Origin: an uncultured Hyphomicrobiales bacterium
GTDB taxonomy: Bacteria > Pseudomonadota > Alphaproteobacteria > Rhodospirillales > CAYFNC01
Length of the DNA stretch: 64,000 bases
Assembly: GCA_964344345.1 (NCBI GenBank)
Contig: CAYFNC010000012.1
Span: 12,716-76,715 of the forward strand
Direction of reading: 5' to 3'
Both the position numbers and the translations under genes were made by a program. The notes under the pieces were generated by a model, which was not told the DNA's origin, made no database searches, and was given only the letters and a program-made list of their open reading frames with translations. Shown here one piece after another: positions 12,796-57,211 of this stretch; the stretch's first letter is position 1; the number at the start of each line of letters is the position of its first letter.

Positions 12796-12882
12796 TGGTG
12801 CCCAGGAGAAGACTCGAACTTCCACGACCTTGCGGCCACAGGTACCTGAAACCTGCGCGTCTACCAATTCCGCCACCTGGGC
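12796..12882 (-). tRNA. tRNA-Leu (anticodon CAG)
   Basis: Minus-strand 87-nt cloverleaf: GCCCAGGTGGCGGAATTGGTAGACGCGCAGGTTTCAGGTACCTGTGGCCGCAAGGTCGTGGAAGTTCGAGTCTTCTCCTGGGCACCA. Acceptor stem GCCCAGG/CCTGGGC, anticodon loop TTCAGGT, long variable arm, T-loop GTTCGAGTC, and an encoded CCA. Confidence 0.95.
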
Positions 12883-25541: not shown

Positions 25542-26861
25542 CTATATCGGCAACCGCACCCGCGCCCTGAGCCCCCCGATGGGCGAATCCTCCAGCGCCA
25601 CGTCGCCGCCGTGGCCTCGGAAGACGTCGCGGGCGATGGAAAGGCCCAATCCCACGCCGCCGGTTTCCGGGTTGCGCGAGCCTTCGAGGCGCATGAAGGG
25701 CTTGAATACGTCCTCGCGCTTGTCCTCGGGGATGCCGGGGCCGTCGTCGTCCACCAGGATCTCGATGGCGTCGTCGCGCCGTCCGCCCCGGATCCAGACG
25801 TGATCGGCGTAACGGTTGGCGTTCTCCACTAGGTTGGTCAGCCCGCGCTTGATGGCGAGGGGGCGGACGGTGAGCACCAGTTCGCCCTCGGAGTGCAGGT
25901 CCACCAGGGCGCCGTTGCGCCGGGCCTGGGCGGCCACGTCCTCCAGGATGCCCCGGATGCGGGTCGGGGCCGGTTGCTCGCGCCCCTCGCCCCGCGCGAA
26001 GGCGAGGTAGCCTTCCAGCATGTGCTCCATCTCGTGGACGTCCTCGGTGAGCTCGACCATGCCCTCGCCCTCGCCCATCATGGCGAGCTGGAGCTTCATC
26101 CGGGTCAGCGGTGTGCGCAGGTCGTGGGAGACGCCCGACAGCATGTCGGTGCGCTGGCTCATCTGGCGCTTGATGCGCTCCCGCATGGCCATGAAGGCGG
26201 AGGCGGCTTGGCGCACCTCGCGCGCGCCTTCGGGCTTCAAGGTGGCCGCCTCGCGGCCCTTGCCGAAGGCCTCGGCGGCCTTGGCCAGGCGGCGGATGGG
26301 CTTGACCTGGTTGCGCATGAACACGGCCGCCACGCCCAAGAGCACGAACGAGGCCCCGATGGTCCACAGAATGAACACGTAGGCGGTGGAGCTGAACACG
26401 CGTTTTCTCGGGACCATGACCTCGAGAACGCCATCGGCCAACTGCACCCGGATCAGCACCTCGCGCTCCAGCGAAGCCGCGTTGATGTCGTAGGGCCAGC
26501 GAAGGCGGTCGCCGAGCGCGTGGTCCAAGGTTTGGCTCAACAGGTCGTGGTATTCGCGCCCGTCGTTGGGCAGGATGCCGCCGCGGTCGAAGGCGACCTT
26601 CATGTTGGTGTTGGTTTCGACCAGGAAGAAGATTCCGTCCCGGTCCTCCGCGTCCGGATTCTGGCGCAACAGCTCGATCAGCACCGCCACCTCGCCCGCG
26701 ACGCCGCGCGCAAGGTGCAGGGTCATCTTGTCCAGATGGCTTTCGAAGAAGATCAGGCCAGAGACCACCTGCACCAGCACCAGGGGCGTGAAGATGATCA
26801 TCAGCGACCGGCCGAGCAGGCTACGGGGCAGAAGGCGCTTGATGACGGATTCGTGGGACAC
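25542..26861 (-). CDS. EnvZ-like sensor histidine kinase
   Basis: 439 aa with two TM segments, a HAMP domain, the H-box GVSHDLRTPLTRM, and HATPase N/G boxes (NLVENANRY, DDDGPGIP, GGVGLGLSI). Confidence 0.88.
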   Translation of the reverse strand: MSHESVIKRLLPRSLLGRSLMIIFTPLVLVQVVSGLIFFESHLDKMTLHLARGVAGEVAVLIELLRQNPDAEDRDGIFFLVETNTNMKVAFDRGGILPNDGREYHDLLSQTLDHALGDRLRWPYDINAASLEREVLIRVQLADGVLEVMVPRKRVFSSTAYVFILWTIGASFVLLGVAAVFMRNQVKPIRRLAKAAEAFGKGREAATLKPEGAREVRQAASAFMAMRERIKRQMSQRTDMLSGVSHDLRTPLTRMKLQLAMMGEGEGMVELTEDVHEMEHMLEGYLAFARGEGREQPAPTRIRGILEDVAAQARRNGALVDLHSEGELVLTVRPLAIKRGLTNLVENANRYADHVWIRGGRRDDAIEILVDDDGPGIPEDKREDVFKPFMRLEGSRNPETGGVGLGLSIARDVFRGHGGDVALEDSPIGGLRARVRLPI

Positions 26862-26873
26862 GGGCCGATTATC

Positions 26874-27557
26874 CTAGTCGGGCTTCAGGACGTATCCGCG
26901 TCCCCGAATGGTCTGCAGGTAGCGCGGGGCCTTGGGGTCGGGCTCGATCTTGCGCCGAAGCCGCGTCACCTGCACGTCCACCGCCCGCCCGCCCGCGCTT
27001 GCGCCGGTCAGCTCGATCAGGTCCTCGCGGCTCAGCGTCGCGCCGGGATTTTCCGCCAGCGCCTTGAGCAGGGCGGATTCCACAGAGGTCAGGCGCACCA
27101 GCTCGTCCAGGCGATACAGCTCCTCGCGGTCGAGGTCGAAACGGAAGTCGCCCATGCGGACTTCCCGGCTCGTGGCTTCCTTTGGCACCCGGCGCAGGAT
27201 GTTGTGGATGCGCAAAAGAAGCTCGCGGGGTTCGAACGGCTTGACCAGGTAATCGTCGGCGCCGCGCTCGAGCCCCGCGATGCGGTCGTCGGGCTCGCTC
27301 ATGGCGGTCAGCATCAGGATGGGGACGGCGCTGCGCTTGCGGTAATCCTCGGCGAAGTCCAGGCCCGACTCGCCCGGCATCATAAGGTCCAGGACGATCA
27401 GGTCGAAGGCGAAGCTTTCCAGCTTTGCGCGCGCGTCCGCGGCGTCCTTGGCGGTGATGACGAAAAAGCCGTTTTCAGACAGAAACTTGTTCAGCAGCTT
27501 CCGCAGCCGGACGTCGTCGTCCACGACCAGGATGTGCGGCAGGTCCTCGGTGTTCAT
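26874..27557 (-). CDS. OmpR-family response regulator
   Basis: 227 aa. The REC domain shows VVDDD, LDLMMPG and KPF. The winged-helix output domain shows LTSVESALLKALAENPG...RGRGYVL. It lies 13 nt upstream of the kinase gene. Confidence 0.92.
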   Translation of the reverse strand: MNTEDLPHILVVDDDVRLRKLLNKFLSENGFFVITAKDAADARAKLESFAFDLIVLDLMMPGESGLDFAEDYRKRSAVPILMLTAMSEPDDRIAGLERGADDYLVKPFEPRELLLRIHNILRRVPKEATSREVRMGDFRFDLDREELYRLDELVRLTSVESALLKALAENPGATLSREDLIELTGASAGGRAVDVQVTRLRRKIEPDPKAPRYLQTIRGRGYVLKPD

Positions 27558-27818: not shown

Positions 27819-28394
27819 ATGATCGAAATTCGAATACACGGTCGAGGCGGGCAGGGAAACGTGGTCGCCGCCTATCTTCTCGCCGGGGCGGCGTTCGAGG
27901 CCGGACGCCATTGCCAGGCGTTCCCGGCGTTCGGGGCGGAGCGGCGCGGCGCGCCGGTGGTGTCCTTCGTGCGCATTTCCGAAACACCGATCCGCAGACG
28001 GTCCGAGGTGCGCGAGCCCGCGTTCCTGATCATCCAGGACCAGACGCTGCTGAACGACCCCAAGCTGGCGGCGGGGCTGAGGCCAGGCGGCGGCGTCATC
28101 GTCAACACCGGCGCCACGTCCGAGGCCATGAGCGAACATTACGGGCTGAACGTGGTCACGCTTCGGGGCAACACGCTCTCGACCGAGGCGCTGGGCCGAC
28201 CGGTTCCCAACGTGGCGCTGTTGTCCGCGTTTCTCGCGCTCACCAACCTGCTTCCCATGGACGCGCTGAAAAAGGCGCTGGCCGGGCGGTTCAAGGGCGA
28301 CGTGTTGGAAAAGAACCTGGCCCTGGTGGACAACGCGGCGAGCCATGTCGTCGAAGGACAGTGGAAGGAGATGGCCGATGCTGCAGGCGCTTGA
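27819..28394 (+). CDS. 2-oxoacid:ferredoxin oxidoreductase, gamma subunit (por/vor/kor-type; substrate not assignable)
   Basis: It starts MIEIRIHGRGGQGNVVAAYLLAGAAFEAG...AFPAFGAERRGAPV, the canonical gamma signature. The SD gaagggg lies upstream of ATG 27819. Confidence 0.88.
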   Translation: MIEIRIHGRGGQGNVVAAYLLAGAAFEAGRHCQAFPAFGAERRGAPVVSFVRISETPIRRRSEVREPAFLIIQDQTLLNDPKLAAGLRPGGGVIVNTGATSEAMSEHYGLNVVTLRGNTLSTEALGRPVPNVALLSAFLALTNLLPMDALKKALAGRFKGDVLEKNLALVDNAASHVVEGQWKEMADAAGA

Positions 28395-29544
28395 AGGATC
28401 CCAGGCGGTCGCGCGCGCCGTCGCCCTGTGCCGGCCCGAGGTGGTGGCGGCCTATCCCATCACCCCCCAGACCCACATCGTGGAGAACATCTCCAAGCTG
28501 GTGGCCGACGGCGAACTGGTGACCGAGCTTGTGAGCGTGGAGAGCGAGTTCTCCGCCGCCTCGGTGGCCTTGGGCGCGGCCGCGGCCGGGGCCCGGGCCT
28601 ACACCGCCAGTTCGTCCCAGGGCATCATGTTGATGACCGAGGTGCTCTACAACATCTCGGGGCTCCGCATCCCCATGGTCTTGACCTGCGCCAACCGGGC
28701 GGTGGGCGCGCCGCTGTCGATCTGGAACGACCACCAGGACTCCATGTCGGTGCGGGATTCGGGTTGGATCCAGCTCTTCTGCGCCAACAACCAGGAAGCG
28801 GTTGATACAACAATCCAGGCCTACCGCATCGCCGAGCGGACCGAGCTTCCGGTCATGGTGTGCATGGACGGGTTCATCCTGACCCACACGCTGGAGGGCA
28901 TCGACATCCCCGACCAGGACGCGGTGGACGCGTTCCTTCCGCCGTTCGAGTTCGCCCGCGCGCTCGACCCCCTGAGCCCCACCAGCGTCGGCACCCTGGT
29001 GACCCCCGACTTCTACGCCGAGGCGCGCCATTCCCACCACGCGGCCATGAACGCGGCGCTCACCGAAATCGAGTCCGTCGACAGGGATTGGGAGGCGGCG
29101 ATCGGCCGGTCCTGCGGCGGCCTTCTGACCACGGACGGCCCCGACGACGCCGAGACGGTCATCCTCGCCATGGGGTCGATCACCGGCACGCTGGCCGAGG
29201 CCATGGACGAGGCGGGCTCGGACGTGAAGCTGATCACGCTCAGGGCCTTCCGCCCGTTCCCGGTGGACGCGCTCCGCGCCGCCGTGGCCGGGGCCAAGGA
29301 CCTGGTGGTGGTGGACCGCTCGCTGTCGCCGGGCCTCGGCGGCGTCGTCGGCAACGAGATCCGCGCCATCCTGGGGGCGGTTCCGGACGCGCCCCGCATC
29401 CACAACGTGGCCGTCGGGCTCGGCGGCCGTGACGTGCCCATGGACCTGCTGCCGAGACTGATCGCGGTGGCGGGCCGGGACGCGCCCGAGCACTTCGAAA
29501 TCCTGGACGCCGATCTCGCCAAGCTGCCCGAGGAGGACCGCTGA
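28378..29544 (+). CDS. 2-oxoacid:ferredoxin oxidoreductase, alpha subunit
   Basis: It starts MLQALEGSQAVARAVALCRPEVVAAYPITPQT (alpha N-terminus). 388 aa. It overlaps the end of the gamma gene by 17 nt. Confidence 0.88.
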   Translation: MLQALEGSQAVARAVALCRPEVVAAYPITPQTHIVENISKLVADGELVTELVSVESEFSAASVALGAAAAGARAYTASSSQGIMLMTEVLYNISGLRIPMVLTCANRAVGAPLSIWNDHQDSMSVRDSGWIQLFCANNQEAVDTTIQAYRIAERTELPVMVCMDGFILTHTLEGIDIPDQDAVDAFLPPFEFARALDPLSPTSVGTLVTPDFYAEARHSHHAAMNAALTEIESVDRDWEAAIGRSCGGLLTTDGPDDAETVILAMGSITGTLAEAMDEAGSDVKLITLRAFRPFPVDALRAAVAGAKDLVVVDRSLSPGLGGVVGNEIRAILGAVPDAPRIHNVAVGLGGRDVPMDLLPRLIAVAGRDAPEHFEILDADLAKLPEEDR

Positions 29545-29545
29545 C

Positions 29546-30625
29546 ATGACCACCACCAGCAACACCCGGCGCCTCGACGAGCTTCGACGCAAGTACGGCC
29601 GCATGCCCGCCGACATGGAGCAGGCGGAGAAAGAGCCCGAAACCGAGGAGGAACGCGCGCTGTGGCTGCGCCGCCACCAGCCCAGGTTCCGGGGGCTCGA
29701 GGCCGGGCACCGCGCCTGCCAGGGCTGCGGAGAGGCGCTCGCCGCCCGCCTGGTGACCGAGGCCGCGGGCCCCGACGTGATGATCGCCAACGCCACCGGC
29801 TGCCTGGAGGTCTTCACCACCCCCTGGCCCCAGTCGGCATGGCGGGTGCCGTGGATGCATTCCCTGTTCGAGAACTCGGCCGCCATCGCGTCGGGCATGG
29901 AGGCGGCGCTGAAGGCCAAGGGCAAGTCCACAAAGGTGCTGGCCTTCGGCGGCGACGGAGGCACCTTCGACATCGGCTTCCAGGCGCTGTCTGGCATGTT
30001 GGAGCGACGGCACAACGTGCTCTACGTCTGCTACGACAACGAGGCCTACATGAACACGGGCATCCAGCGTTCGGGCTCGACCCCGCACGCGGCCCGGACC
30101 ACCACCTCGCCGCCGGGCAAGGTCAGCATGGGCAAGGTGCACCTGAAAAAGGACCTGGTGTCCATCATCGCCGCCCATCACATCCCCTACGCCGCCAGCG
30201 CGTCGGTGGCCTATCCCGCCGACATCCGCAAGAAGGTGCGCCGCGCCATGGGGATCGAGGGGCCGACGTTCCTTCTGATCCACAGCCCGTGCCCCCTCGG
30301 CTGGGGCCACGAAAGCGACGCGACCATCGAAATGGCCCGTCTCGCGGTCAAGTCCGGCCTGTTCCCGCTGATCGAGTTGGAGCGGGGCGAGATCACCGGG
30401 GTCATGCCCATCCGCAAGCCGATCCCGGTCGCGCAATACCTGGAGCGCCAGAACCGCTTTCGCCACCTGTTCGCCGAGGACGATCCCCGGGCGCAGAAGG
30501 AGCTTGCGCACTTGCAGGCGCTCGCGGACTACAACATCGACGTCTACGACCTTCGCGGCGGGGAGGACGACCCGCTCGACACCGACGGCATCGACACGGT
30601 CCGCCGCGGCGGCCACGCGGGTTAG
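29546..30625 (+). CDS. 2-oxoacid:ferredoxin oxidoreductase, beta (TPP-binding) subunit
   Basis: Cys ligands: CQGCG...GC. The TPP motif is GGDGGTFDIGFQALSGM...NEAYMNTGIQ. It carries an N-terminal extension of about 50 aa. The start lies 2 nt after the alpha stop. Confidence 0.88.
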   Translation: MTTTSNTRRLDELRRKYGRMPADMEQAEKEPETEEERALWLRRHQPRFRGLEAGHRACQGCGEALAARLVTEAAGPDVMIANATGCLEVFTTPWPQSAWRVPWMHSLFENSAAIASGMEAALKAKGKSTKVLAFGGDGGTFDIGFQALSGMLERRHNVLYVCYDNEAYMNTGIQRSGSTPHAARTTTSPPGKVSMGKVHLKKDLVSIIAAHHIPYAASASVAYPADIRKKVRRAMGIEGPTFLLIHSPCPLGWGHESDATIEMARLAVKSGLFPLIELERGEITGVMPIRKPIPVAQYLERQNRFRHLFAEDDPRAQKELAHLQALADYNIDVYDLRGGEDDPLDTDGIDTVRRGGHAG

Positions 30626-30640
30626 GGAAGGAGAAACACC

Positions 30641-32422
30641 ATGAACGTCCTGACGCGCGGCGGCTACGCCCTTCCGGGAACCTCGCTCGATTTCAAGACC
30701 GGCTCGTGGCGGAACCTGTTTCCGCTCCACAACCACCTCAAGGCTCCGTGCCATGACGCCTGCCCGGCGGGGGAGGACCAGCAGGCCTGGCTCGCCCGCA
30801 TCCAGGAAGGCCGCTGGAAGGAGGCCTGGGAAAGCCTGGTCATGGCCAACCCCATGCCGGGCGTGACCGGCCGGGTCTGCCCCCACCCGTGCGAGACCGC
30901 GTGCAATCGCGGCGATTTCGACGAACCCATCGCCATCCACAACGTGGAGCGTTTCCTCGGCGACGAGGCGGTGCGCCAAGGATGGGAGTACCCCTCCTTC
31001 CCGCCCAACTTCGACGGCCCCAGCGTCGCCGTGGTCGGCGGCGGACCAGCGGGGATTTCGGCGTCCTACCACCTGTTGCGCCGGGGGGTGAAGGTGACCA
31101 TGTTCGACGCTTTGCCGTCGGCGGGCGGATTGCTGCGTTCGGCTATTCCGATGACGCGGCTGCCGCGCGAGGTGCTGGACGCGGAGCTCGAGCGCATTCT
31201 CGCGCTCGGCATCGACTTCCGCCCGCGCCAACGGCTGGGACGCGACATGTCGCTCGGCGAGCTCGAGGTCAGCTACGACGCCGTGTTCCTCGGCATCGGG
31301 GCGCAGAAATCCAGAGAGTGGAGCGTCAACGGCGAGGTCCCGGCCGACATGCACGACGGCCTGCACCTGTTGAAGGAATGGGTGGACCACGGCAAGGTCC
31401 ACACGCCCAAGAAGGTCGCCATCCACGGCGGCGGCAACACGGCGGTGGACTTGGCGCGCGTCATGAAGCGCGCGGGCTGCGACGAGGTTTCCGTCATCAC
31501 CGCGTCGGGCCTTCCCGGCCCCGGCGTGGACCCCGGCGACGTGCTCAACGTGGTGCCGCGCGAACTGGAGGAGGCGTTGGAGGAGGGCGTCGTCTTCCAC
31601 GCCTTCCACACCATCCAGCGCCTCATCATGCGGGGCTCGCGCCTGGTCGGCATCGAAGTGGCCAGGCTGAAGAAAATCCCCGACGGCAAGGGCCGGTCCA
31701 ACCGGGTCGCGTTCGAGGGCACGGAACGGGTTCTCAACGTCGACATGGTCATCCCCGCCATCGGCGAGGTGGTGGACCCCGAGGGCGTCGAGAAGCTCAT
31801 CGGCCAAGCCAGCAACTTCCGTCCCGACCACTGGGGCGGGCTCGCGGACAACCCGGGCGTCTACGTCGGCGGCGACGCCCGCAGCGGCGCCGGCACCGTG
31901 GCGGCGGCCATCGGCGACGGACGCCGGGCGGCGGAGGCCATCCGCGCCGCCGTCGGCGGGGACGACGCGCCGGTGATGGACGAGCGCGGCGTCATAGAGG
32001 CGAACGGCCTGAACCTGGAGTACTACGAGGCCGCGCCCCGCGTCGCCGCGCCCTTGCTTCCGCCCGAGGACCGCACCGACGCCACCGAAATCGAGGGTAG
32101 CCTGTCCCAGCCCGAAGCCGCGGCCGAGGCGGCCCGGTGCCTGTCCTGCGGCAACTGCCTCGCCTGCGACAATTGCTGGACGCTCTGTCCCGACAACGCG
32201 GTGGTCAAGACGGTGGAGATGGCCAGCGACGGCAGCCACTACGTCTTCGACTACGACTTCTGCAAGGGGTGCGGACTCTGCGCCACCGAATGCCCGTGCG
32301 GCTATATCGAGATGCGCGTCGAGCGCAGACTCGGCATCGGCTCTGGCTACGGCGGCGAGGACCGTCGGCGCATCGCCTCGGTGGAAGAGGACGTCGGGGT
32401 CACGGAAATCGAGGAAGAGTGA
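30641..32422 (+). CDS. Fusion protein: POR-delta-like N-arm, GltD-like Fe-S/FAD/NAD(P)H oxidoreductase, and a C-terminal 2x[4Fe-4S] ferredoxin domain
   Basis: 593 aa. The N-terminus PGTSLDFKTGSWRNLFP resembles the PorD TGSWR arm. The GltD N-domain reads CHDACP...NPMPGVTGRVCPHPCETAC. Dinucleotide sites are VAVVGGGPAGISAS and VAIHGGGNTAVDLAR. The C-terminus carries CLSCGNCLACDNCWTLCP and CKGCGLCATECP (nt 32138..32299). Confidence 0.85.
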   Translation: MNVLTRGGYALPGTSLDFKTGSWRNLFPLHNHLKAPCHDACPAGEDQQAWLARIQEGRWKEAWESLVMANPMPGVTGRVCPHPCETACNRGDFDEPIAIHNVERFLGDEAVRQGWEYPSFPPNFDGPSVAVVGGGPAGISASYHLLRRGVKVTMFDALPSAGGLLRSAIPMTRLPREVLDAELERILALGIDFRPRQRLGRDMSLGELEVSYDAVFLGIGAQKSREWSVNGEVPADMHDGLHLLKEWVDHGKVHTPKKVAIHGGGNTAVDLARVMKRAGCDEVSVITASGLPGPGVDPGDVLNVVPRELEEALEEGVVFHAFHTIQRLIMRGSRLVGIEVARLKKIPDGKGRSNRVAFEGTERVLNVDMVIPAIGEVVDPEGVEKLIGQASNFRPDHWGGLADNPGVYVGGDARSGAGTVAAAIGDGRRAAEAIRAAVGGDDAPVMDERGVIEANGLNLEYYEAAPRVAAPLLPPEDRTDATEIEGSLSQPEAAAEAARCLSCGNCLACDNCWTLCPDNAVVKTVEMASDGSHYVFDYDFCKGCGLCATECPCGYIEMRVERRLGIGSGYGGEDRRRIASVEEDVGVTEIEEE

Positions 32423-32503
32423 CGTTACGGTAGGATGCGTCGCGTCTAAAGAGGTTCGGTCCTTCCTTCCTCGCCACCTCCGGGCTTGATCCTGGGGGGC
32501 GCG

Positions 32504-32539
32504 AAAAAAAGCGTGGATTGCCGGGTCAAGCCCACTGCT
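32504..32539 (-). terminator. Candidate rho-independent terminator on the minus strand, about 380 nt downstream of the amidohydrolase gene
   Basis: The minus strand reads AGCAGTGGGCTTGACCCGGCAATCCACGCTTTTTTT. This forms an imperfect hairpin (AGC-GTGG/CCAC-GCT plus inner TTG/CAA) followed by a T7 run. Confidence 0.4.
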
Positions 32540-32916
32540 GCCCGGTTAAGATTTCTGGCATGGCGCATGGCGTTGATTCTACTTGTGTTTAGGCGTTTTT
32601 CGACGTTCTTGACACGAAGCGAGGACCAACGCCATATGGGCGCCGCCAGATGCCGCGTCGTCACACGCTTCAAATCCAAGCGGGTATCCGGGGTCCATGG
32701 CCCCTGTGTGAAAGGGTCAACATTTTCCAAGTGTGGGCGGTCATGGTTCCCGGATAGCCCTTACGAGCTTCCGCGATAACGATTTCCCGTCTTAAGTCAG
32801 CCCCTTTGCGCGAAAGCGGGAATCCATATTTTCATATGGGCCATGGTTTCTGGCTCTTTGCTTCGCTCCGGCCGGAATGACGGTTCTCGTGAAGTCGTGG
32901 TTATTCCGCCGCATCG

Positions 32917-36210: not shown

Positions 36211-36618
36211 CTAGGTTTTTCCCTGAAGAAACGCCCCCAGCTCGAGATCGACTTTTTGAATGTGGTCGGTCAACCACTTGCTCAGGAAATTCATCGCCTT
36301 GAGGGTCGATGGCGTTTGGCCGGATTTGAAATCCGCTATGGCCTTCGCGATATTCTTTTCAAAAATATCGTGCTGGCGCTTTTGTTCTTCGATGTCCGGA
36401 TAGCCATGCTTTTCCATCAAGGCTTCCTCGCGTCGAAAGTGGCTTTTCGTATAGGTCTCCAGCTTTTCCAGGGTTCGCCCGTAAATCGCCTTGGCTTCCC
36501 CCTGCCGCATCGAAGCGTGGAATTCATTGATGATCGAGATAAGTTCTTTGTGGTCGCCGTCAATTGAGGCGACACCGACGCTAAAATCATCACTCCATTG
36601 GATCAAAGACATCGCCAC
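36211..36618 (-). CDS. Bacteriohemerythrin
   Basis: 135 aa. The N-terminus is IQWSDDFSVGVASIDGDHKELISIIN. Other motifs are SHFRREEALMEKHGYPDIEEQKRQHDIF and WLTDHIQKVD, giving the His/Glu/Asp di-iron ligand pattern. Confidence 0.92.
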   Translation of the reverse strand: MAMSLIQWSDDFSVGVASIDGDHKELISIINEFHASMRQGEAKAIYGRTLEKLETYTKSHFRREEALMEKHGYPDIEEQKRQHDIFEKNIAKAIADFKSGQTPSTLKAMNFLSKWLTDHIQKVDLELGAFLQGKT

Positions 36619-36714: not shown

Positions 36715-38334
36715 TCAGCTCGCGACAACACGGTTTCGTCCTCCATTCTTGGCGGCGTAGAGCGCCTTGTCGGCGGCCTCCAACGCGTCCGCCGCGCTGT
36801 CTTGCGCCGCCTCGGCCACGCCGCAGCTCAGCGTCGCCGCGAACGGGCCGTCGCTTCCCGGCTGGCGGACGCGGGCGAAGGATTCGCGTACGCCTTCCAT
36901 GACATCGCGCGCCTGATCGACGGTGGCGTCTGGCAGGACGACGGCGAACTCCTCCCCGCCCATGCGGCCGACGATGTCGGCCGAGCGCATGCGCTGCTTC
37001 AACAACCGGGCGAGGCTTTTGATCACCACGTCGCCGACGCCGTGGCCGTGGGTGTCGTTGACGGACTTGAAATGGTCGATGTCGAGCATGGCCAGCGCCA
37101 AGGGCTTCCCGTCGCGCCTGGCGTGGTCCATTTCCTTTTGCAGAAGCTGCACCGTGGTGGTGTGGTTGTAGAGCCCGGTCAGCCCGTCCCGCACCATCAA
37201 GGCGCGCAGCATCCGGAACCGCCGGGCCCTGGAGCGCACGGCGGCGATAAGATGGTCGGGCTTGATCGGCTTGGTCAGGAAGTCGTCGCCGCCCCGGCTC
37301 ATGGCGCCTTGCTGCTTGTCCATGTCCTTCTCGCCGGACAGGAAGACGATGGGAACCCCGGCGAAGGCCTCCTGTTGGCGGATCACGGCGGCCAGCTCCC
37401 ACCCCTCGCAGCCGGGCATGTAAAGGTCCAACAGGATCAGTTCGGGCGCGAAGGTCCCGAGCTTGTCGAGCACGGCCATGGGGTCGGTGGTCGATTCGGC
37501 GATCGCGCCGGCGCCTTGCAGGACCGCCTCGGCGAACTTGGCCATGCTGATGTCGTCGTCGATCACCAGCACGCGGAACGGCTCCCCGCCCTCGGGCGCG
37601 ACGAGGGCGTCCAAGGCGTCAACCAGCTCCGTCGGGTTCACGGGCATGGACAGGAAGGCGTCCGCGCCGGTCCTAACGGCGGCGAGCCGGGTCTCCATGT
37701 CGCCGCGCTCGGACAGGAACAGCAAGGGGAGCGCCTTGCGCCCTTTGACGCTCAAGGTCCGCGACACGTCGTCTATCGGCACGGCCTCTCCGTCGTGGAT
37801 TTCCATGACGACGGCGGCAGGCGCGCGGTCCGCCATGGCGGCGCGAAGTTCGTCCATGCTTGAAACCGCCAGGGTCCGGTATCCGAAGTGCCCGAGCTCC
37901 TGGGCCAGGAATTCCGCGTCGTCGCCGACGGCGTCGAGAAGCACGACGAGCGGCGCTTCCGATTCCGACGCGTTCTCGTCCTTTTCGTCCTCGGCGGGCG
38001 CCCCGGCCGCGGCGGCCTGATCGCGCATCTCGACGAGCAGGGCCTCGACCACCACGGGGGACGGGACCTCGTCCGCGTCCCGAGCCTTGTTGCACACGTC
38101 CTCGAGCCGCCAGGCGGTCTCGCCCACGTCCTTGAAGCCGAAGGTGGGGGCCGAGCCCTTCATCTTGTGGGCCAGGTTGCGGAGCGCGGCCACCGCTTCG
38201 CGTTTCTCGTCAGGGGTCTTGGTCCGCTCGATAGCGGCGTGGGCGTAGGCGATCTCGTCGATGCGCTCGGCCAGCTTTCCGGCGAAGTTCTTTTTCAGAA
38301 CGGCGAGCTTTGCCTCCAGCTTGGCGTCAACCAT
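36715..38334 (-). CDS. HPt - degenerate REC - REC - GGDEF diguanylate cyclase
   Basis: 539 aa. The HPt motif is NLAHKMKGSAPTFG (His56). REC1 has VVMEIH and FLSMPV, so Glu178 and Met230 sit where Asp and Lys are expected. REC2 is canonical (VIDDD, LLDLYMPG, FLTKPI). The GGDEF domain has GGEEF with an RSAD I-site 5 residues upstream. Confidence 0.88.
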   Translation of the reverse strand: MVDAKLEAKLAVLKKNFAGKLAERIDEIAYAHAAIERTKTPDEKREAVAALRNLAHKMKGSAPTFGFKDVGETAWRLEDVCNKARDADEVPSPVVVEALLVEMRDQAAAAGAPAEDEKDENASESEAPLVVLLDAVGDDAEFLAQELGHFGYRTLAVSSMDELRAAMADRAPAAVVMEIHDGEAVPIDDVSRTLSVKGRKALPLLFLSERGDMETRLAAVRTGADAFLSMPVNPTELVDALDALVAPEGGEPFRVLVIDDDISMAKFAEAVLQGAGAIAESTTDPMAVLDKLGTFAPELILLDLYMPGCEGWELAAVIRQQEAFAGVPIVFLSGEKDMDKQQGAMSRGGDDFLTKPIKPDHLIAAVRSRARRFRMLRALMVRDGLTGLYNHTTTVQLLQKEMDHARRDGKPLALAMLDIDHFKSVNDTHGHGVGDVVIKSLARLLKQRMRSADIVGRMGGEEFAVVLPDATVDQARDVMEGVRESFARVRQPGSDGPFAATLSCGVAEAAQDSAADALEAADKALYAAKNGGRNRVVAS

Positions 38335-57107: not shown

Positions 57108-57146
57108 TGCGGTTTTCCTTTTCCGGTTACGCCTCCGCGGGCCATA

Positions 57147-57164
57147 GCCTTCCGTTCGGAAGGC
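57147..57164 (-). promoter_or_regulatory. Stable hairpin in the presumed rpsB 5' leader
   Basis: GCCTTCC-GTTC-GGAAGGC, a perfect 7-bp stem. It lies 40-57 nt upstream of the rpsB ATG and downstream of the candidate promoter. Confidence 0.35.
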
Positions 57165-57211
57165 ACCGGAACGCGCTCGCGCGCGCTTGCCCGCGTGTGG
57201 ATTTGGCCCGA

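Follow-up and report, generated by a model that had tools for sequence, protein, structure and literature searches.

A PorD-type subunit interrupted by a GltD-like flavoprotein, and a putative ferredoxin-independent pyruvate:NAD(P)+ oxidoreductase

Where do the electrons go in a 2-oxoacid:ferredoxin oxidoreductase (OFOR) whose small iron-sulfur subunit has been built around a flavoprotein? The question is raised by a 64-kb stretch of contig CAYFNC010000012.1 (assembly GCA_964344345.1) from an uncultured Hyphomicrobiales bacterium, hereafter the window; all window coordinates count from its first letter. Four genes on the + strand (27819-32422) encode OFOR gamma, alpha and beta subunits and a 593-aa protein, and form a tight, translationally coupled operon. 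Because the small Fe-S subunit carries a flavin/NAD(P) module, electrons probably go straight to NAD(P)+ and not to free ferredoxin. Sequence comparison leads us to favour, with some reserve, a pyruvate:NAD(P)+ oxidoreductase that works without ferredoxin; it would be to Por-type enzymes what the 2-oxoglutarate:NADP+ oxidoreductase of Azoarcus evansii is to the Kor type. The four genes are as follows (TPP, thiamine pyrophosphate).

27819..28394 (+): OFOR gamma, 191 aa; PF01558 (POR), E 1e-37; TIGR02175 (PorC_KorC), 176 bits against a cutoff of 81
28378..29544 (+): OFOR alpha, 388 aa; PF01855, E 1e-74; PF17147, E 3e-18; match to PorA 9bt4_B, E 7e-100
29546..30625 (+): OFOR beta, 359 aa, with TPP site and proximal [4Fe-4S] cluster; PF02775; match to PorB 9bt4_C, E 2e-104
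30641..32422 (+): 593-aa protein, a putative fusion of delta and GltD; NF009410/PRK12771 match

The gamma ATG is preceded by GAAGGGG, and gamma homologues are likewise ~191 aa long. The alpha start overlaps the gamma end by 17 nt and lies 7 nt downstream of a Shine-Dalgarno sequence (GGAAGGAG, 28363-28370); an alternative in-frame ATG at 28345 was rejected, being supported neither by the homologues nor by the public gene call. Beta begins 1 nt past the alpha stop, and the fusion gene starts 15 nt after the beta stop with an GGAAGGAG of its own. These spacings, together with agreeing Pfam and NCBIfam roles, bear out a first-pass annotation of the same DNA, which had described gamma, alpha and beta as tightly coupled; the 593-aa product that it gave for the fourth gene was confirmed as well (30641-32422, +).

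Anatomy of the 593-aa protein

What kind of protein occupies the fourth position? Residues 13-561 align with positions 26-565 of the 566-position profile NF009410 (PRK12771, "NAD(P)-binding protein") at E 9e-155. A domain scan with profile hidden Markov models, a check proposed along with the first-pass annotation, resolved a PorD arm, a GltD-like module and a PorD ferredoxin domain, arranged as listed here (FAD, flavin adenine dinucleotide; pLDDT, predicted local distance difference test).

30668..30730 (+): PorD-type N-terminal arm, residues 10-30 (PGTSLDFKTGSWRNLFP); PorD_Arch match
30740..30982 (+): GltD/NfnB-type Fe-S domain without its first CxxC, residues 34-114; PF14691 (Fer4_20), positions 29-112 only
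31022..31921 (+): FAD and NAD(P) Rossmann domains, residues 128-427; PF07992 (Pyr_redox_2), PF00070, PF13450
32003..32155 (+): permuted N-terminal segment of the GltD Fe-S domain, residues 455-505 (...EAARC500LSC503GN); PF14691 permutation test
32156..32326 (+): PorD-type 2x[4Fe-4S] domain, residues 506-562; PorD_Arch 32-84, TIGR02179 26-77; 9bt4_G, E 5e-11
32327..32419 (+): acidic C-terminal tail, 31 aa (ERRLGIGSGYGGEDRRRIASVEEDVGVTEIEEE); genome-specific, pLDDT <40, predicted disordered

PorD-like sequence lies towards both ends of the protein. Residues 10-35 alone match PorD_Arch positions 9-34 (E 1.6e-4), and T20, G21, W23, R24 and P28 are invariant or nearly so across the family, in keeping with the TGSWR-like PorD arm that had been recognised earlier. 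Residues 504-561 match the PorD profiles and the solved PorD of Methanosarcina acetivorans (9bt4_G), with ferredoxin-domain cysteines at C506/509/512/516 and C541/544/547/551. The span to which the C-terminal ferredoxin clusters had first been assigned (nt 32138..32299) runs from C500 to the end of C553, and the clusters were indeed found there. The acidic tail is missing from all aligned homologues, which stop near residue 563.

To score the two PorD-like parts as one, residues 1-35 were joined in silico to residues 494-565 and compared with PorD_Arch and TIGR02179 (PorD_KorD). The joined halves cover PorD_Arch positions 9-84 of 85 with 76.7 bits and reach 70.5 bits on TIGR02179, above its cutoff of 60.05, while the C-terminal part alone scores 54.8-55.7 bits. 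Because arm and ferredoxin domain pass TIGR02179 once joined, the 593-aa protein reads as a PorD cut between them, with ~470 residues inserted.

The order of elements within the insert is itself altered. The ~28 N-terminal profile positions missing from the GltD Fe-S domain are found at residues ~479-505 ("R.D.TEIEGSLS..EAAAEAARCLSCGN"), after the flavin domain, where R499, C500, C503 and G504 are invariant. When residues 455-505 were moved ahead of residue 35 and the profiles rescored, the Fer4_20 match grew to positions 4-112 and from 69.7 to 100.4 bits; six GltD-type NCBIfam models were lengthened by 31-42 positions, the five compared gaining 14-20 bits, and TIGR01316 then covered positions 1-447 of 449. 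At the level of profile comparison, the insert is shown to be a circularly permuted GltD/NfnB-type FAD/NAD(P) module placed between two PorD parts. The canonical order of GltD, NfnB and dihydropyrimidine dehydrogenase (DPD)—a two-cluster Fer4_20 domain, then the FAD and NAD(P)H domains—was not found in the protein, in which all of these elements are present but permuted. The centre had been called a complete GltD-type unit; its elements hold up (Fer4_20 at 34-114, Pyr_redox_2 at 128-427), but its completeness does not, as the first CxxC lies at C500/C503, after the flavin domain. Precisely the two ligand pairs of one cluster are parted by the break in the GltD Fe-S domain, and as a result one continuous series of cysteines ties the inserted module to PorD: a clean case of domain insertion enabled by circular permutation. 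A full-text literature search did not find this split-PorD/permuted-GltD architecture described.

Which cofactors might such a protein hold? We based conservation on 20 divergent and 121 closer family members. Fifteen cysteines are invariant (C37, C41, C80, C84, C88, C500, C503, C506, C509, C512, C516, C541, C544, C547 and C551), and E103 is kept in at least 90% of the family sequences. Ligands were mapped onto pig DPD and Thermotoga maritima NfnB through PDB alignments: within the Fe-S domain, C37, C41, C80, C84, C88 and E103 stand at offsets that fit the DPD/NfnB ligand positions, and the ligand lists of these two proteins are consistent with the alignment. So is the numbering that PMC7596348 gives for NfnB. 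We predict from these alignments four [4Fe-4S] clusters and FAD in the 593-aa protein: a distal GltD-type cluster on C500, C503, C37 and C88, a proximal GltD-type cluster on C41, C80, C84 and E103, and two PorD clusters on the remaining eight cysteines, of which we infer the "distal" one from the way in which 2x[4Fe-4S] ferredoxins are commonly cross-ligated. C506 follows C503 at a distance of three residues, so that the GltD distal cluster would be joined directly to a PorD cluster.

An AlphaFold2 single-chain model built on a 121-sequence alignment is compact, with a pLDDT of 89.4 and a predicted template-modelling score (pTM) of 0.87. Values below 50 occur only at residues 14-20 of the arm and 565-593 of the acidic tail, and residues 1-20 lie at 47-55; a low pLDDT is expected for the arm, because it needs partner subunits. 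The best Foldseek matches are the A subunits of the bifurcating enzymes NfnABC/StnABC, with a template-modelling (TM) score of 0.73 over ~600 columns, followed by NfnB, GltD and DPD at TM ~0.60. Homologues of the flavin module include NAD(P)H/Fe-S flavoproteins of proven function. It shares fold and cofactor motifs with the GltD/NfnB/DPD module and with the NfnABC/StnABC large subunits (TM 0.60-0.73, E down to 1e-78); unlike GltD, NfnB and DPD it is circularly permuted, and unlike all of these systems it has no glutamate synthase, NfnA or hydrogenase-like partner in the window and belongs to a clade without the nucleotide-site motif YRR.

DsrL, the NAD(P)H:acceptor oxidoreductase that serves dissimilatory sulfite reductase, resembles the window protein in overall layout. 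An Fe-S domain comes first, then an FAD domain into which an NAD(P) domain is set; a linker of ~100 aa leads to a C-terminal 2x[4Fe-4S] ferredoxin domain, the part that docks into a partner enzyme. However, that partner is DsrAB, the (degenerate) first ligand pair of DsrL is N-terminal whereas that of the window protein lies at C500/C503, and a PorD arm is not described for DsrL in its paper. Loffler et al. 2020 ask of a DsrL that dsrAB be present in the organism, that all domains be there and that the gene not lie next to pyruvate/ketoisovalerate oxidoreductase genes, and they explicitly set aside look-alikes linked to such genes. By these authors' criteria the window protein was rejected as a DsrL orthologue, as its gene directly follows OFOR beta and no dsrAB was seen in the window.

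Linkage to OFOR genes without a delta subunit

Is the fused protein peculiar to one genome, or is it tied to OFOR genes more generally? A search of a representative library returned 18,025 matches at E<=1e-3 and 3,176 at E<=1e-30, generic GltD relatives included; full-length members of ~540-590 aa number in the thousands, and species-representative genomes contain at least 554 confirmed loci. Hosts belong to the Alpha-, Beta- and Gammaproteobacteria, Actinomycetota, Acidobacteriota, Binataceae, Desulfobacterales and other groups, with Magnetospira, Magnetospirillum, Azospirillum, Magnetovibrio, Rubrivivax, Sulfurisoma and Aquabacterium as cultured genera. The window copy is an ordinary member of this very large, uncharacterised family. 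An assembly or frameshift artefact was rejected, as the same 560-590-aa open reading frame (ORF) is found in thousands of sequences; nor is the observation due to chance, given the end-to-end NF009410 match and the same gene order in 79 of 80 genomes. That order was counted in the best 80 genome loci from species-representative genomes.

65 of 80 loci: gamma-alpha-beta-fusion
12 of 80 loci: cut by a contig end, with beta or alpha and beta directly upstream of the fusion gene
2 of 80 loci: gamma-fusion-alpha-beta, with the fusion gene in the classical delta position (L079, L083)
1 of 80 loci: no OFOR gene on a 10-kb contig (L067)

The fusion gene stands beside delta-less OFOR genes in 79 of these genomes, at a median of ~54 nt from beta. 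A TGxW[RQK] arm and two ferredoxin motifs are present in the fusion ORF of all 85 loci that were fetched, and no stand-alone delta gene lies beside the OFOR genes in any of them. The genetic tie of the fusion protein to OFOR genes without delta is firm across bacteria, which answers the co-occurrence check suggested earlier. Covalent fusions exist as well: gamma joined to the fusion protein (P0131, P0143, P0212), beta joined to it (P0220), and an IorA-like protein (POR_N plus TPP domains) with the same insert (P0244). Within the window, a six-frame scan found no CxxCxxCxxxC ferredoxin motif outside the fourth gene and no stand-alone delta ORF (~80-105 aa, arm plus 2x[4Fe-4S]), so the earlier statement that the usual delta position has no free-standing gene can be widened to these 64 kb. 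That the fusion protein serves the OFOR as its delta subunit is supported, at the level of sequence, by the joined-PorD score, the loci with the gene in the delta slot, the gamma and beta fusions and the lack of another delta.

Might the fourth protein instead be a free, co-expressed NAD(P)H:ferredoxin oxidoreductase of the DsrL/NfnB kind, recycling the soluble ferredoxin of a three-subunit OFOR? DsrL-type proteins do work as separable NAD(P)H:acceptor oxidoreductases (PMC7596348), L067 has the gene without OFOR neighbours, and in Thioploca three unrelated small genes part the fusion gene from beta. Yet medial and distal clusters are missing from a Por-type alpha-beta-gamma core that has no delta, and the PorD arm, kept in 85 of 85 loci, is absent from the KorC-like paralogue of delta-less Kor enzymes. 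The presence of the fusion gene in the delta slot of two genomes, the covalent gamma and beta fusions and the lack of a ferredoxin gene in the 64-kb window also speak against a free oxidoreductase, which we regard as highly improbable.

Clustering of neighbouring ORFs from 83 loci revealed no conserved partner beyond the four genes, and no NfnA-like, ferredoxin or regulator gene; the other recurrent ORF clusters are antisense ORFs of the high-GC operon itself. The genes inserted between beta and the fusion gene in the Thioploca metagenome-assembled genome (MAG; L002:6534-7945) encode DUF4258, an unannotated 74-aa ORF and DUF8168_C. The flavoprotein module is also found fused to a dihydroorotate-dehydrogenase-like domain and to DUF2867, in a set of proteins that also includes P0247 and P0160. 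Family members carry database names such as the SEED-style "in cluster with PFOR" and the "2-oxoacid:acceptor oxidoreductase delta subunit" of IMG; together with the remark of the DsrL authors, these names indicate that the OFOR association has already been noticed.

Substrate, electron acceptor and direction

Is the catalytic core still that of a pyruvate enzyme? The PorC, PorA and PorB models are the best family matches for gamma, alpha and beta, outscoring those for Vor, Pad, oxalate and Kor, and the closest solved relatives of alpha and beta are PorA and PorB of the M. acetivorans pyruvate:ferredoxin oxidoreductase (PFOR; 9bt4_B, E 7e-100, and 9bt4_C, E 2e-104). In alpha, YPITPQTH is identical, and the pocket segment ANRAVGAPLSIWNDHQD aligns with M. 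acetivorans ANRAVSAPINIWNDHQD in a near-identical ANRAV..(L/I)(S/N)IWNDHQD; in beta, the alignment to 9bt4_C retains the four cluster cysteines (CxxC, GCLEV, PCP.GW) and the GDG...NTG TPP/Mg motif. Judged by these motifs, the Por-type catalytic core is intact and pyruvate-like.

The first-pass annotation held that the substrate could not be read from the sequence. To a degree it can: the nearest match of alpha and beta is a true PFOR, that of M. acetivorans, which makes pyruvate the likely substrate. Genes resembling pyruvate phosphate dikinase (PPDK) or phosphoenolpyruvate (PEP) synthase (PpsA) lie a few kb from the operon in 5 of ~83 loci (L001:530-3208, L031:13578-16001, L058:2739-5093, L066:5194-7698 and L080:11005-13668), the hosts being Magnetospira, Azospirillum formosense and three Solirubrobacterales-type MAGs; these neighbours and the PFOR-like motifs of alpha and beta together favour pyruvate. 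The same architecture could act on another 2-oxoacid, whether 2-oxoisovalerate or a branched-chain acid, 2-oxobutyrate or a glyoxylate-type compound, since Por and Vor are closely related with overlapping specificities and the subunits do not reach the Por equivalog cutoffs given below. However, each of the three subunits scores lower with Vor than with Por models, E values of ~1e-100 tie alpha and beta to a characterised PFOR with matching pocket segments, and genes for pyruvate-PEP enzymes are close by in five loci, so that another substrate seems to us unlikely, if a serious contender.

Compared with the M. acetivorans enzyme PorABCD (PDB 9bt4), gamma, alpha and beta are homologous end to end, with TPP, substrate and proximal-cluster motifs kept, and both the PorD arm and its 2x[4Fe-4S] domain are present in the window protein. 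PorABCD differs in having a stand-alone 85-aa delta, whereas here the delta halves are ~470 flavoprotein residues apart, and in its acceptor, which is ferredoxin there and predicted from sequence to be NAD(P)+ here. The window beta also has an N-terminal extension of ~45 aa that M. acetivorans PorB lacks. This extension is rich in Lys, Glu and Arg (MTTTSNTRRLDELRRKYGR..., window 29546-29690, +); a similar one occurs in Magnetospira, and sister-clade betas likewise start ~45-70 aa ahead of the PorB core. The flavoprotein may dock there.

How could electrons travel through the complex? With delta replaced by a 593-aa Fe-S flavoprotein, this one protein would both complete the enzyme and act as its electron acceptor. 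Pyruvate would be decarboxylated on TPP in alpha/beta, and single electrons would pass from TPP to the beta [4Fe-4S] cluster, then to the PorD-type clusters (C516/C541/C544/C547, followed by C506/C509/C512/C551), then to the distal GltD-type cluster (C500, C503, C37, C88), and through the proximal cluster (C41, C80, C84, E103) to FAD, which would gather two electrons and pass a hydride to NAD(P)+. The flavin module would sit where free ferredoxin normally docks. The net reaction would be pyruvate + CoA + NAD(P)+ -> acetyl-CoA + CO2 + NAD(P)H (CoA, coenzyme A), that is, a function like that of pyruvate dehydrogenase with the chemistry of PFOR.

The 2-oxoglutarate:NADP+ oxidoreductase of A. evansii, described by Ebenau-Jehle and colleagues in 2003 and reportedly made of 63-, 62- and 37-kDa subunits, is the closest functional precedent, being likewise an OFOR that reduces pyridine nucleotide through a dedicated GltD/NfnB-like Fe-S flavoprotein. 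The first-pass annotation had named this enzyme as a precedent, and the precedent is real: its flavoprotein subunit is listed among the GltD/NfnB/DsrL homologues (PMC10134865). In contrast to the window enzyme, whose core is Por-type and whose flavoprotein doubles as delta, the A. evansii enzyme has a two-subunit Kor core (gamma and alpha fused, no delta) and a flavoprotein without a PorD arm. A fused gamma-alpha Kor core (~600 aa plus KorB) was not found in the operon, where the genes are separate and TIGR03710/OAFO_sf scores 48-112 bits against 483.

Two genomes of the family carry both kinds of enzyme genes. In L057 and L020, a KorC-like protein of 610-667 aa, GltD-like with a ferredoxin domain, is encoded directly upstream of KorA/KorB genes (L057:308-5032; L020:11733-17451), a few kb from the Por-type operon. 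Over residues 28-559 the L057 protein shares 29% identity with the window protein (E 8e-65), the aligned stretch including "EA.RC..C" and the C-terminal ferredoxin domain, and relative to the window protein the KorC-like protein lacks only the PorD arm. With KorAB, these KorC-like proteins probably form Azoarcus-type 2-oxoglutarate:NADP+ oxidoreductases. Pyridine-nucleotide-linked OFORs are thus known, and the window operon is best read as the Por-type counterpart of the Kor-type NADP+-linked enzyme.

Two further systems, the phenylglyoxylate:NAD+ oxidoreductase PadEFGHI of A. evansii and the pyruvate:NADP+ oxidoreductase (PNO) of Euglena and Cryptosporidium, also have an OFOR wired to pyridine nucleotide by an added flavoprotein. 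Pad differs in keeping delta (PadF) and flavoprotein (PadH) separate; a Pad-type enzyme was rejected, as gamma, alpha and beta fall far below the Pad cutoffs (133 vs 300, 291 vs 700 and 205 vs 700 bits). The C-terminal domain of the 593-aa protein matches PadF weakly (39 vs 150 bits), and there is no PadH model among its 25 best families (weakest listed, E 2.5e-7). PNO uses an FMN/FAD domain of the cytochrome-P450-reductase type (FMN, flavin mononucleotide). A PNO-type fusion was rejected too, the Pfam scan of window proteins having found no such reductase-like domain.

Which nucleotide would be used? The family divides at the NAD(P) loop. The window clade (52-69% identity; Rhodospirillales, Thioploca/Beggiatoa relatives and Binataceae) is of a V-I-T-A-S-G-L-P-G-P type with an insertion of ~11 residues, and the window protein itself has "VITASGLPGPG...", TAS standing where relatives have "VYRRTR". 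The large sister clade (~40% identity; Azospirillum, Burkholderiales and Actinomycetota) retains "VYRRTR". The YRR motif, which binds the 2'-phosphate of NADPH, is absent from the window clade. DsrL shows the same dichotomy at its nucleotide site: by its kinetics, YRR forms use NADP(H) and S/T-x-x forms NAD(H), and DsrL-1A has an extension at this place (PMC7596348). T-A-S fits the pattern of the NAD(H)-specific DsrL-1, and by this analogy we hold, with moderate confidence, that the window enzyme uses NAD+ rather than NADP+.

The energetics bear on direction. The standard potentials of ~-500 mV for acetyl-CoA + CO2/pyruvate and -320 mV for NAD(P)+ put oxidation far downhill and synthesis driven by NADH steeply uphill. 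Cluster potentials measured in M. acetivorans PFOR (~-385 to -505 mV; PMC12337175) and in DsrL (-330/-390 mV; PMC7596348) fit a stepwise descent from TPP to flavin and NAD+. The window clade probably works in the oxidative direction.

OFORs are in principle reversible, and the enzyme might run backwards: driven by NAD(P)H and without ferredoxin, it would make pyruvate, which PPDK or PEP synthase would pass on to gluconeogenesis. The sister clade retains the NADPH-type YRR, and among DsrL forms it is the YRR/NADPH ones that are reductive (PMC7596348); PPDK/PpsA-like genes lie a few kb away in five loci, those of Magnetospira and Azospirillum included. But this adjacency concerns only 5 of ~83 loci and fits glycolytic flow equally well, and the window clade, which lacks YRR, looks NAD(H)-type, which makes the energetics worse. 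A standard-potential gap of ~180 mV (~+35 kJ/mol) stands against synthesis with NAD(P)H, which would be feasible only with micromolar pyruvate and a high NADPH/NADP+ ratio. We consider a synthase improbable here. Of the two functions proposed in the first-pass annotation, the self-contained 2-oxoacid:NAD(P)+ oxidoreductase gains strong comparative support, while thermodynamics make the NAD(P)H-driven synthase improbable in this YRR-less clade. A broader proposal, that the family runs PFOR chemistry in both directions without ferredoxin, with the YRR/NADPH clade acting as a CO2-assimilating pyruvate synthase or with the NfnB-like flavin bifurcating, seems to us doubtful.

Flavin bifurcation or confurcation in the window enzyme itself, as in NfnAB, NfnABC and StnABC, would link a third redox partner with pyruvate oxidation and NAD(P)H, in place of a simple linear wire. 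The best relatives in structure and sequence are bifurcating subunits (9bov_A, 9n5u_A and 8oh5_C; TM 0.73, E 1e-77 to 1e-68), and the proximal cluster keeps, through E103, the Cys3-Glu type of ligation of NfnB. Against this, the operon has no NfnA-like, [2Fe-2S] or second-flavin partner and none is conserved in the 83 neighbourhoods; the flavin has a single Fe-S path out; GltD and DPD have the same fold without bifurcation; and electron transfer from pyruvate to NAD+ is strongly exergonic already. We therefore think bifurcation very unlikely.

Several observations weigh against a ferredoxin-independent pyruvate:NAD(P)+ oxidoreductase. The equivalog cutoffs of PorA (427 vs 550 bits), PorB (379 vs 405) and PorC (194 vs 225) are missed, so that substrate specificity is not certain, and that of NF009410 is passed by a small margin (516.4 vs 516). 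The nucleotide assignment rests on the DsrL analogy, a rule weakened by the KorC-like relative, which has "VRS" at the nucleotide site although the A. evansii enzyme was reported to use NADP+. In L067 the fusion gene lies on its 10-kb contig without OFOR genes, and the search for a delta gene of this enzyme covered the 64 kb of the window. In structure, the flavin module comes nearest to subunits of electron-bifurcating enzymes, which makes a more complex redox scheme possible, and a full-text literature search found no biochemical or structural study of the fusion family.

Genomic surroundings and meaning of the family

The window is a stretch of ordinary alphaproteobacterial chromosome (rpoN, lptC, ileS, gatB, bamA, rseP), and its sequence is identical to metagenome contig ERZ930068. 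Scans for promoters and terminators and against Rfam found nothing close to the operon. The following features were recorded around it and elsewhere in the window.

25542-27557 (-): OmpR-type response regulator and HAMP/HisKA sensor kinase, divergent from the operon across a 261-bp intergenic region
32423-32916: gene-free gap of 494 bp between the operon and a convergent M20 peptidase gene, with no Rfam match and no convincing intrinsic terminator
36211-36612 (-): hemerythrin gene, ~4 kb downstream of the operon
36715-38334 (-): GGDEF response regulator, likewise ~4 kb downstream of the operon
12799-12882 (-): tRNA gene, one of only two Rfam matches in the window
57111-57199 (-): rpsB leader/sRNA element, the other Rfam match

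The OmpR/HisKA pair may provide local regulation of the operon; kinases of the PAS-HisKA type are likewise encoded close to the operon in locus L003 and at the Magnetospira locus. A rubrerythrin gene (L067:7296-7862) adjoins the orphan fusion gene of L067. A 2026 preprint describes oxygen-tolerant Por/Oor enzymes clustered with hemerythrin and globin genes, and the hemerythrin gene close to the window operon and the rubrerythrin gene close to the L067 orphan may hint at oxygen handling.

What would this family mean for the bacteria that carry it? Its at least ~550 loci include many from aerobes and microaerophiles, among them Azospirillum, Rubrivivax, Solirubrobacterales and Pelagibacteraceae. 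If the operon encodes a ferredoxin-independent pyruvate:NAD(P)+ oxidoreductase, many bacteria annotated with a "pyruvate:ferredoxin oxidoreductase" would have an enzyme that does without ferredoxin and forms or consumes NAD(P)H itself. Metabolic models would then have other redox balances, and por genes, as markers of anaerobiosis or carbon fixation in environmental surveys, would need rereading; were the two-way or the bifurcating reading true, the "por" genes surveyed would stand for a different kind of enzyme. The operon would also offer engineering a compact, self-contained module for interconverting acetyl-CoA and pyruvate. Its breadth in supposedly aerobic lineages and its neat wiring make the family a good, directly testable target.

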